A program made the position numbers and the translations under genes. Source: Escherichia coli (lineage in GTDB: Bacteria > Pseudomonadota > Gammaproteobacteria > Enterobacterales > Enterobacteriaceae). From it: a stretch of 348 nt of DNA. The notes under the pieces are model-generated. The model worked only from the letters and a program-made list of their open reading frames with translations. It had not been told where the DNA came from and searched no databases. Each line of letters begins with the position of its first letter. The stretch's first letter is position 1. Location: assembly GCF_003334255.1 (NCBI RefSeq), contig NZ_QOWU01000259.1. The stretch is one strand, 5' to 3'. Shown piece by piece: positions 1 through 348 of this stretch.

Positions 1-117
1 CAGGCACTGGCAGTGGGTGTGGGTTACCGCTTCAACGAGCAGACCGCAGCGAAAGCAGGCGTGGCATTCAGTGATGGCGATGCCTCCTGGAACGTTGGTG
101 TGAACTTCGAGTTTTAA
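1..117 (+). CDS. 3' end of an outer-membrane beta-barrel protein gene (5'-partial; start codon lies upstream of the window)
   Basis: Frame +1 is open from base 1 to TAA at 115-117. Translation: [38 protein letters not shown]. Alternating hydrophobic/polar residues, short turns (NEQT, DGDAS) and a terminal Phe with aromatic/hydrophobic residues at -1, -3, -5 match the C-terminal beta-signal of outer-membrane beta-barrels. Internal GVGYRF resembles the C-terminal motif of OmpX/Ail/PagC-family proteins (from memory). Codons are common enterobacterial ones (ctg, gcg, aac, ttc, ggt, cgc). Family assignment is inference; no gene name can be given. Confidence 0.78.
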
Positions 118-141
118 TTGCTGAAGGTGACATGAAGTATG

Positions 142-175
142 ACGGCAGGCGCAGGACTCTGGTCTGCCGTTTTTC
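142..175 (+). terminator. Rho-independent (intrinsic) terminator of the upstream gene
   Basis: Inverted repeat ACGGCAGGC (142-150) pairs with GTCTGCCGT (162-170): 8 Watson-Crick pairs plus one G.U. An inner helix CAG (152-154)/CTG (159-161) closes a GACT tetraloop, with a 1-nt bulge at G151. The stem base is GC-rich and is followed directly by a T-run (170-174). It begins 25 nt after the TAA stop. There is no A-run on the upstream side, so it looks unidirectional. Confidence 0.65.
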
Positions 176-191
176 ATGGGGCATAAAAAAC

Positions 192-198
192 AGGAAGG
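192..198 (+). promoter_or_regulatory. Shine-Dalgarno / ribosome-binding site for the downstream CDS
   Basis: AGGAAGG (core GGAAGG 193-198) lies 7 nt upstream of ATG 206, complementary to the 16S rRNA 3' end. It is preceded by an A6 tract (185-190), which is commonly seen upstream of efficient RBSs. Confidence 0.55.
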
Positions 199-205
199 TG
201 CTGCG

Positions 206-348
206 ATGAAGGTGATTCTGGCTACCAGGAACCGCTATCTGGAGTATGGTCTGCAGGCGTTACTGAAGGGGCACAGTGTGATACTGGCGAGGGAGTTTTT
301 CCTGCCGGAGAACCGCCGTTATATCCCGGACTTTGACGAATCCTGGCT
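206..348 (+). CDS. 5' end of a protein-coding gene (3'-partial); possibly a LuxR/FixJ-family transcriptional regulator with an atypical receiver-like N-terminus (GadE/DctR/RcsA-like), tentative
   Basis: ATG at 206 with SD 7 nt upstream; frame is open to the window end (47 codons plus a partial codon). Translation: MKVILATRNRYLEYGLQALLKGHSVILAREFFLPENRRYIPDFDESW. The N-terminal pattern (hydrophobic run, T-R-N, then Y-L-x-x-G-L-x-x-L-L-K-G) is similar from memory to GadE (MIFLMTKDSFLLQGFWQLK), DctR/YhiF (MFLIITRDT…ILSKG) and RcsA. In canonical NarL-type receivers this position is the conserved acidic DD pair; here it is T-R. Functional call rests on about 25 residues of recalled similarity and is not verified. 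Confidence 0.68.
   Translation, partial: MKVILATRNRYLEYGLQALLKGHSVILAREFFLPENRRYIPDFDESW

Follow-up and report, generated by a model that had tools for sequence, protein, structure and literature searches.

An eib adhesin gene of Escherichia coli prophages is followed by a less codon-adapted gene for a predicted TosE-like regulator

The 348-nucleotide stretch of Escherichia coli DNA analyzed here (contig NZ_QOWU01000259.1 of assembly GCF_003334255.1; hereafter the window) spans the junction between the 3' end of the adhesin gene eibC/eibD and the start of ORF-156, a short downstream gene whose product is predicted to be a regulator related to TosE. The analysis established the identity of both genes, a difference in codon adaptation between them over their full length, and the recurrence of a gene order in which an adhesin gene is followed by a TosE-like gene. 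The window is probably a two-gene junction of phage cargo at which a scarce, adhesin-linked regulator is encoded behind a conserved terminator hairpin. The codon contrast between the genes marks no boundary between core and foreign DNA; both were horizontally acquired.

Identity of the two genes and the link to TosE

A search of phage records placed the window, at 100% identity over 348 bases, in AF151674.1 (2368-2715, prophage P-EibC) and AF151675.1 (2394-2741, prophage P-EibD), both from E. coli ECOR-9, so that the sequence became public with the deposition of those records. Annotated beneath the match are eibC/eibD, a stem_loop and orf-156C/D. Identity to the other ECOR-9 loci is 93.7% for eibA and 79% for eibE, and across the ORF-156A/C/D/E loci (AF151091, AF151674-6) the gene order and stem-loop are as in the window. 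These records give no function for ORF-156; the present analysis adds the fold, the homology to TosE and the codon statistics. By sequence identity, the upstream gene is eibC/eibD, a prophage-borne gene for a trimeric autotransporter with a YadA-type C-terminal anchor. A homologue of the full-length upstream protein matched the EibD passenger (PDB 2xqh, E 6.7e-84) and the YadA anchor (PDB 2lme, E 6.4e-18), NCBIfam YadA_autotrans was found on its residues 392-502 (E 6.7e-36), and PF03895 is recorded on homologues. Non-immune immunoglobulin binding is attributed to Eib by GenBank annotation and by literature cited in PMC5450701.

An exhaustive phmmer search with ORF-156 recovered a 160-amino-acid relative (E 1.3e-19) whose gene lies on its contig between a large open reading frame (ORF) and a GerE-domain gene. 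The same DNA is present in E. coli Nissle 1917, where the order is a PapB-family regulator, TolC/ABC transporter/HlyD genes, a large repeat protein, the 160-amino-acid helix-turn-helix (HTH) regulator and a further HTH gene. This context matches the order tosRCBDAEF given for the tos operon in PMC5956150, which identifies the relative as TosE. BLASTP aligned ORF-156C (156 residues) to TosE (160 residues) over residues 1-151 at 32% identity (E 7e-31), and the AlphaFold DB (AFDB) model of the CFT073 protein superposes on the ORF-156 model with a template modeling (TM) score of 0.94. On this homology, ORF-156 is a relative of TosE and a predicted regulator of the LuxR/FixJ fold. PMC5956150 places TosE and TosF in the LuxR family and, citing Engstrom et al. 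2014, associates them with motility suppression, and the RNA-seq reads for tosE and tosF reported there were too few for analysis, which is consistent with low expression. None of the papers searched names TosE together with Eib.

ORF-156 is a real gene under purifying selection, with pairwise dN/dS (nonsynonymous to synonymous substitution rates) of 0.10-0.21 among homologues and synonymous sites near saturation. A search against Pfam and NCBIfam matched no family, including Pfam GerE and Response_reg, and the sole match in PHROGs was phrog_6585, of unknown function. Its relatives in a collection of 5.8 billion proteins all carry the name "hypothetical protein", and those with a stated organism all come from E. 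coli; some of its AFDB relatives are named "LuxR family transcriptional regulator" in UniProt. An alignment of 22 relatives (A1) contains the conserved block LTMSEMVVMFGY..LA.EMGI.TKTV. The AlphaFold2 model built on this alignment (predicted local distance difference test, pLDDT, 89; predicted TM score, pTM, 0.84) has a beta/alpha N-terminal domain of four strands at residues 1-88 and a four-helix C-terminal domain at residues 102-153. The top PDB matches of this model in Foldseek were full-length RcsB, FixJ, EvgA, DesR, LiaR and VpsT; probabilities against these NarL/FixJ regulators were 0.99-1.00, with E 5e-4 to 2e-3 and TM 0.33-0.48. The low TM-scores are expected, since ORF-156 is shortened and its domains are differently arranged. 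A search of the ORF-156 profile against PDB sequences gave weak LuxR-type HTH (E 0.05) and GerE (E 0.56) matches. Three long or repetitive candidate relatives were set aside as likely compositional artefacts: P0057, a Ser/Thr/Gly/Asn-rich repeat protein, and P0062 (1,371 amino acids) and P0065 (1,434 amino acids), each with 4 matched stretches.

The model thus suggests a shortened receiver-like domain joined to a LuxR/GerE-type HTH. Like the NarL/FixJ regulators RcsB, FixJ, EvgA, DesR and VpsT, it combines an alpha/beta N-terminal domain with a predicted four-helix HTH of LuxR/GerE type; unlike them, ORF-156 is about 50 residues shorter, has four strands instead of five and has no kinase gene nearby. 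A nearly invariant aspartate, D52, follows strand 3. Judged by position in the secondary structure, T7-R8-N9 stand where an acidic pair would follow strand 1, and the fifth strand is missing; for these reasons ORF-156 is predicted not to be phosphorylated. The initial annotation of the window had offered a regulator as one reading of the downstream gene, a suggestion borne out as a prediction by the NarL/FixJ-type fold and by the full-length homology to TosE.

Codon usage in the window and over the full-length genes

The initial annotation had contrasted 38 well-adapted upstream codons with a downstream start holding AGG at 227-229 and 290-292, ATA at 281-283, TTA at 260-262 and GGG at 269-271. 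All of the flagged codons lie in the ORF-156 frame, and the upstream 38 codons are well adapted, with a local codon adaptation index (CAI) of 0.593 against 0.376 for the downstream part and none of the nine rare codons that were fixed a priori (AGG, AGA, ATA, CTA, CGA, CGG, GGA, GGG and TTA; the rare-9 set). CAI was referenced to 28 ribosomal-protein and elongation-factor genes of MG1655, and 107 other MG1655 (K-12) genes, with a median CAI of 0.40 and a 95th percentile of 0.64, served as host background. Rare-9 codons make up 0/38 of the upstream and 5/46 of the downstream codons (p=0.061, two-sided Fisher test), and a comparison of per-codon log-weights gave a Mann-Whitney p=0.59. At least five rare-9 codons fall within the first 46 codons of 22% of the 107 host genes, and the last 38 codons hold none in 15%. 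Because such counts are common among host genes, the contrast in the window alone is within chance, and the caveat attached to it, that the sample was very small, was correct. The sole exception is the pair of AGG codons, given a host frequency of 0.9 per 1000 (probability of at least two in 46 codons, ~9e-4). GC content at third codon positions (GC3) in the window is 0.63 upstream and 0.72 downstream, a difference that does not run in the direction implied.

Over the full-length genes the contrast in codon adaptation is real but modest; it is an ordinary one, and the window exaggerates it. CAI was 0.424 for eibC (63rd percentile of the host sample, GC3 0.41), 0.435 for eibD (64th, 0.42), 0.477 for eibA (75th, 0.45) and 0.387 for eibE (47th, 0.39), as against 0.305-0.310 for ORF-156C/D/A (7th-8th, 0.65-0.67) and 0.245 for ORF-156E (1st, 0.63). 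Per-codon weights of eib and ORF-156 differed in each of the four ECOR-9 pairs (Mann-Whitney p 0.003-0.02). Full-length adaptation is thus dissimilar in the two genes, and the downstream gene is poorly adapted along its whole length, at the 1st to 8th percentile of the sampled host genes. GC3 does not follow the expected pattern: eib is low and ORF-156 high. Relative to the 5th-95th percentile range of the 107 host genes (0.44-0.64), eibC, eibD and eibE fall under the lower limit and eibA (0.45) lies just inside it, while ORF-156C/D/A exceed the upper limit and ORF-156E (0.63) is just inside. AGG/AGA codons are also frequent in eibC, at 12 per 1000 versus 2.4 per 1000 in the host.

Within ORF-156C, rare-9 codons occur at 5/46 at the start and 10/109 in the remainder, and this equal density indicates that they do not form a 5' ramp; 5/15 of its arginine codons are AGG/AGA, and it has four ATA codons. 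The eib gene is less uniform, with no rare-9 codons in its last 100 codons and 31 in its first 403, and a local CAI of 0.56-0.64 over the last 100. GC3 along eibC (positions 970-2484 of locus L002 in our collection) is itself a mosaic, at 0.18-0.24 over codons 176-250 and 0.58-0.62 over the last 100. The window samples the single host-like part of eib, its membrane anchor, and this accounts for the impression of a core-like gene. ORF-156, for its part, is typical of the accessory end of the phage and no outlier there, as it shares its codon profile with ORF-60, eaa and the tail-fiber gene (CAI 0.30 for the tail fiber and 0.33 for Eaa; CAI 0.30-0.33 and GC3 0.60-0.66 for ORF-60 and eaa). Phage-borne tRNAs for AGG, AGA and ATA were considered as an explanation and rejected, no tRNA gene being annotated in the eib prophage of strain DETEC-S792.

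Distribution of the pair and its prophage context

TosE-like genes were found directly 3' of adhesin genes at eibA/C/D/E of ECOR-9, in prophages L001, L017 and L019, on plasmid-like contigs L013-L016, at L024 and L062, and in the tos operon. On the plasmid-like contigs a 66%-identical ORF-156 homologue follows an Eib-like gene (59% to EibC residues 154-504); at L024 a YadA-type anchor gene directly precedes a homologue of 47% identity; and at L062, a chromosomal island of strain HS4, a distant homologue of 151 amino acids (hhalign probability 95%, E 2e-8) begins 61 nt past a YadA-like gene. At 33 loci on IMG/VR viral contigs the upstream sequence was long enough for a verdict. Of these, 21 have an Eib-type anchor that stops 85-93 nt 5' of the homologue; in the remaining 12 the homologue directly follows lambda-type tail-fiber genes, with a different terminator, a 180-nt AT-rich spacer and no eib. 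These 12 loci suggest that eib behaves as a variable insert before ORF-156, and they lend no support to the idea of the initial annotation that it was the downstream gene which had been inserted.

The adhesin gene is better codon-adapted than its TosE-like partner in 9/9 pairs, by 0.10-0.17 CAI units; the values are 0.371 and 0.220 for tosA and tosE, 0.315 and 0.211 for the plasmid pair, and 0.322 and 0.210 for the HS4 pair. Since the regulators are poorly adapted across a GC3 range of 0.25-0.67, their low adaptation is not a mere relic of base composition. This family-wide pattern favors an explanation by expression level over one by donor signature alone.

The window sequence occurs in 39/5,426 complete E. 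coli genomes, in 1-6 copies each and always on the chromosome, and the eib/ORF-156 copies examined lie inside prophages. The pair is thus variably present rather than syntenic across the genus. The upstream gene had been called a core-like outer-membrane gene, which is wrong given this distribution, both genes being cargo of the same prophage; the accompanying suggestion that the downstream gene was horizontally acquired holds on the same ground. In DETEC-S792 (NZ_CP116067.1) the order is capsid genes, tail fiber, a DUF4376 gene corresponding to ORF-191, the YadA-like gene, the 156-amino-acid gene and an S6-family autotransporter (Eaa), with lysis genes, a Q antiterminator, replication genes and an integrase further along. 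Other prophages (L017, L019) carry the pair at ~73% nucleotide identity, and one of them is of lambda type, with J, lom, tail fiber, DUF4376, the YadA-like gene, ORF-156 and integrase.

Several further features of these loci were recorded. The ~42-kb eib prophage of DETEC-S792 lies between rcsD (L001 17523-20195) and rcsB (L020 23125-25109, with the integrase), which are neighbors in K-12. Its integrase abuts rcsB, and RcsB is also the best structural match of ORF-156; the agreement between that match and the insertion site is probably a coincidence, and the insertion could affect rcsB expression. Among phage loci the anchors are 79-100% identical and the passengers 52-80%, which, together with the GC3 mosaic, suggests shuffling of eib modules at the stalk/anchor boundary. 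ORF-60 (L002 3043-3225; L001 12676-12855) begins ~490 nt past the right end of the window and overlaps the ORF-156 stop codon by its first base (TGATG). It encodes 60 amino acids, hydrophobic over the C-terminal half; conservation is 100% among three loci and 57-58% for L017/L019, and the NCBI Prokaryotic Genome Annotation Pipeline (PGAP) left it unannotated in L001. ORF-60 was considered as a remnant of TosF and rejected, being a small hydrophobic protein that shows no relation to TosF. In some loci ORF-156 and ORF-60 are followed by eaa (eaaC, L002 3317-7324; L001 12950-16957), which encodes an S6-family autotransporter of 1,335 amino acids resembling the serine protease autotransporters of Enterobacteriaceae (SPATE-like); it contains 126 rare-9 codons (9.4%) at a CAI of 0.33 and is present in only 2/35 IMG/VR loci.

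The plasmid-like contigs L013-L016 carry Rep3, CcdAB, VapBC and colicin M genes, and over positions 1-5918 a gene for a trimeric autotransporter of more than 1,439 amino acids and a BamE/OmpA-domain lipoprotein gene precede the Eib-like pair, so that two trimeric autotransporter genes stand in tandem. A lone 55%-identical ORF-156 homologue was found at L009-L012 (6001-6495), ~1.1 kb 3' of hpaBC with no adhesin remnant and with a PerC-family gene ~3.5 kb further on; this hpaBC-adjacent variant accounts for 391 indexed blocks of the contig collection and, among the orphan forms seen, is the most frequent. In a Stx-type prophage of E. coli O157:H7 TW14359 (L018 4819-5114), an internally deleted remnant matching residues 21-77 and 119-156 lies after tail-fiber genes without eib, part of it annotated as a hypothetical protein of 62 amino acids. 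A 106-nt fragment of this remnant recurs in many O157:H7, O111 and other Shiga toxin-producing E. coli genomes.

Expression of ORF-156, competing explanations and significance

The features of the window are given in Table 1. The two genes lie on the same strand, with an 88-nt spacer from the eib stop codon to the ORF-156 ATG and ~35 nt between the hairpin and that start. The region 118-205 folds at -30.7 kcal/mol (z -2.7 versus shuffles), and the hairpin was also picked up by a terminator scan. The hairpin and its T-run occupy the same position in seven divergent loci (alignment A2) although the stem sequences have changed, and a purine-rich block is kept 5' of a conserved ATGAAGGT start. An Rfam search of the window returned nothing at E<=1. 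Short ORFs of 25 and 38 amino acids cross the spacer and hairpin at 132-209 (+) and 68-184 (-); they show no sign of being genes, and the region is variable between the loci of alignment A2.

Table 1. Features of the 348-nucleotide window
Feature	Position	Strand	Basis and description
eibC/eibD 3' end, 38 sense codons (ending NVGVNFEF) and TAA at 115-117	1..117	+	GenBank identity; YadA-type beta-barrel membrane anchor of immunoglobulin-binding trimeric autotransporter adhesin
Intrinsic-terminator-like hairpin, GC-rich stem 141-171, then five T (170-174)	141..175	+	Folding, terminator scan, GenBank stem_loop at window 142-170
Shine-Dalgarno-like AGGAAGG, 6 nt 5' of the ORF-156 start codon	193..199	+	Read from the sequence
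ORF-156C/D start, ATG and 46 codons (protein begins MKVILATRNRYLEYGL), N-terminal receiver-like domain (predicted)	206..348	+	GenBank orf-156C/D

Eib expression is known to depend strongly on conditions, namely static culture, stationary phase and activation by IbrAB (PMC5450701; reference list of PMC8065619). No sigma-70 consensus promoter was found on the + strand of the window or of L002 600-3400; this negative is weak and uninformative, as the scan also missed the eib promoter. On the simplest reading, ORF-156 would owe its expression to transcription that partly reads through the eib terminator, and would follow eib transcription at much lower amplitude.

In the explanation we prefer and consider likely, two cargo ("moron") genes meet in the window, at the tail-fiber end of a temperate E. 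coli phage of the P-EibC/P-EibD type. The anchor module of the surface-exposed Eib adhesin is conserved and well adapted to E. coli codons, and the variable passenger is rich in AT at third positions. The codon contrast would reflect expression level, with the adhesin made in bulk and the regulator kept scarce by limited terminator read-through and by poor codons, and by analogy with TosE/TosF ORF-156 may couple adhesin expression to another program such as motility. The initial annotation had offered a low-abundance regulator, a horizontally acquired gene, or both as what its contrast might mean. Homology, fold and prophage context support the regulator and the acquisition; low abundance would follow from the arguments given here.

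Several observations weigh against this explanation. The CAI of ORF-156 resembles that of the neighboring phage genes, and weak selection on accessory genes may account for it. The host reference consists of 107 K-12 genes in place of a complete ECOR-9 genome, and the nine pairs are not phylogenetically independent, representing ~6 lineages. The predicted HTH draws on a modeled fold and weak profile matches (E 0.05), with Pfam GerE and NCBIfam unmatched, and the proposed regulator role and link to motility derive from 32% identity and gene order. Pairing with an adhesin gene is not obligate, as 12/33 phage loci and L009-L012 carry the homologue without one. Read-through is an assumption, because no promoter of ORF-156 could be located. 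No TosF-like partner of ORF-156 was found in any eib locus, ORF-60 having no similarity to TosF; TosF itself matched the ORF-156 profile over only ~30 HTH residues (probability 28%).

The most serious competitor is that the genes simply have different evolutionary origins, forming a recombinational mosaic (eib passenger, eib anchor, ORF-156/ORF-60/eaa) that keeps the codon signatures of its donors with no functional bearing. GC3 does shift sharply, from 0.18-0.24 at codons 176-250 of eibC to 0.58-0.62 in the anchor and 0.64-0.72 in ORF-156, and the conserved anchors beside more divergent passengers, the 12/33 phage loci with a homologue and no eib, and the profile that ORF-60 and eaa share with ORF-156 also speak for it. 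Pure donor signatures do not predict, however, that TosE-like genes spanning GC3 0.25-0.67 should all be poorly adapted and all fall below their adhesin partners. We regard such an origin as possible though unlikely to be the whole account, and it does not exclude an effect of expression level. It is much harder to maintain that the contrast is a sampling artefact of comparing a 3' end with a 5' end over 85 codons, which are too few. Rare codons are generally commoner near gene starts, the window tests were not significant (p 0.061 and 0.59), the counts seen occur in 22% and 15% of host genes, and the anchor is unrepresentative of eib as a whole. Yet the contrast holds at full length in all four ECOR-9 alleles (p 0.003-0.02) and the rare codons of ORF-156 continue past its start (5/46, then 10/109), which largely refutes the artefact and leaves it very improbable.

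A different kind of alternative concerns the role of the protein. ORF-156 might be a sigma-region-4-like or anti-activator protein that does not bind DNA and contacts RNA polymerase or a host regulator of LuxR/FixJ type, such as RcsB. Some relatives are called "sigma factor-like HTH" or "sigma-70 region 4 type 2" by PGAP or UniProt, Pfam Sigma70_r4 weakly matches a single member of the family, RcsB is the best structural match, and one carrier prophage sits between rcsD and rcsB. Since sigma region 4 and the HTH of LuxR type adopt a common fold, such names do not tell the two roles apart; the conserved motif matches the HTH segment with which LuxR proteins bind DNA, and only a single genome showed the rcsD/rcsB insertion. 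We consider this role improbable.

Among known systems, TosE of uropathogenic E. coli CFT073 and of Nissle 1917 resembles ORF-156 in full-length homology, in its place right after a non-fimbrial adhesin gene and in being less codon-adapted than that gene. The two differ in that the TosE partner is TosA, an RTX protein exported by type 1 secretion, whereas that of ORF-156 is a trimeric autotransporter; in GC content (0.28 for tosE and 0.54 for ORF-156C); in the next gene, tosF, which encodes a GerE-domain protein, versus the unrelated ORF-60; and in location, tos lying on a pathogenicity island and ORF-156 on a prophage. PapX of the E. coli pap operon and MrpJ of the Proteus mirabilis mrp operon are small regulators encoded at the 3' ends of adhesin operons that repress flagellar genes. 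They follow the same adhesin-motility logic as is proposed for TosE/TosF and may apply to ORF-156, but they belong to another protein family, not of LuxR type, and to fimbrial operons. AutA/AutR (HyxA/HyxR) are LuxR/GerE-type regulators encoded beside the autotransporter adhesin UpaB/HyxB on a horizontally acquired cluster and have been shown by experiment to control it (PMC4844996). They are larger than ORF-156 (253-264 amino acids) and separately transcribed, and they were rejected as its relatives, tblastn against the hyxB-hyxA-hyxR locus of avian pathogenic E. coli (APEC) O1 (L026) finding nothing at E<=0.01.

The locus itself was already in GenBank. New here are the assignment of ORF-156, "hypothetical" since 2000 and unnamed in Pfam, NCBIfam and PHROGs, to predicted TosE-like regulators of the LuxR fold, and the finding that mobile elements of several types repeatedly carry a TosE-like gene right after an adhesin gene. 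A broader proposal, which we put forward tentatively, is that ORF-156, TosE and their distant relatives might be a family of their own, made up of small LuxR-fold regulators that need no phosphorylation. They would move on phages, plasmids and islands together with genes for non-fimbrial adhesins (trimeric autotransporters and RTX adhesins), be kept scarce by read-through of a conserved terminator, and reprogram the host, by turning motility off or by feedback on the adhesin, whenever the adhesin is expressed. If this were true, a temperate phage would import an adhesin together with a lifestyle-switch module. To our knowledge, no locally encoded regulator of Eib has been considered so far, and ORF-156 is a candidate for such a regulator, one that may mediate cross-talk of chain-forming adhesion with motility.

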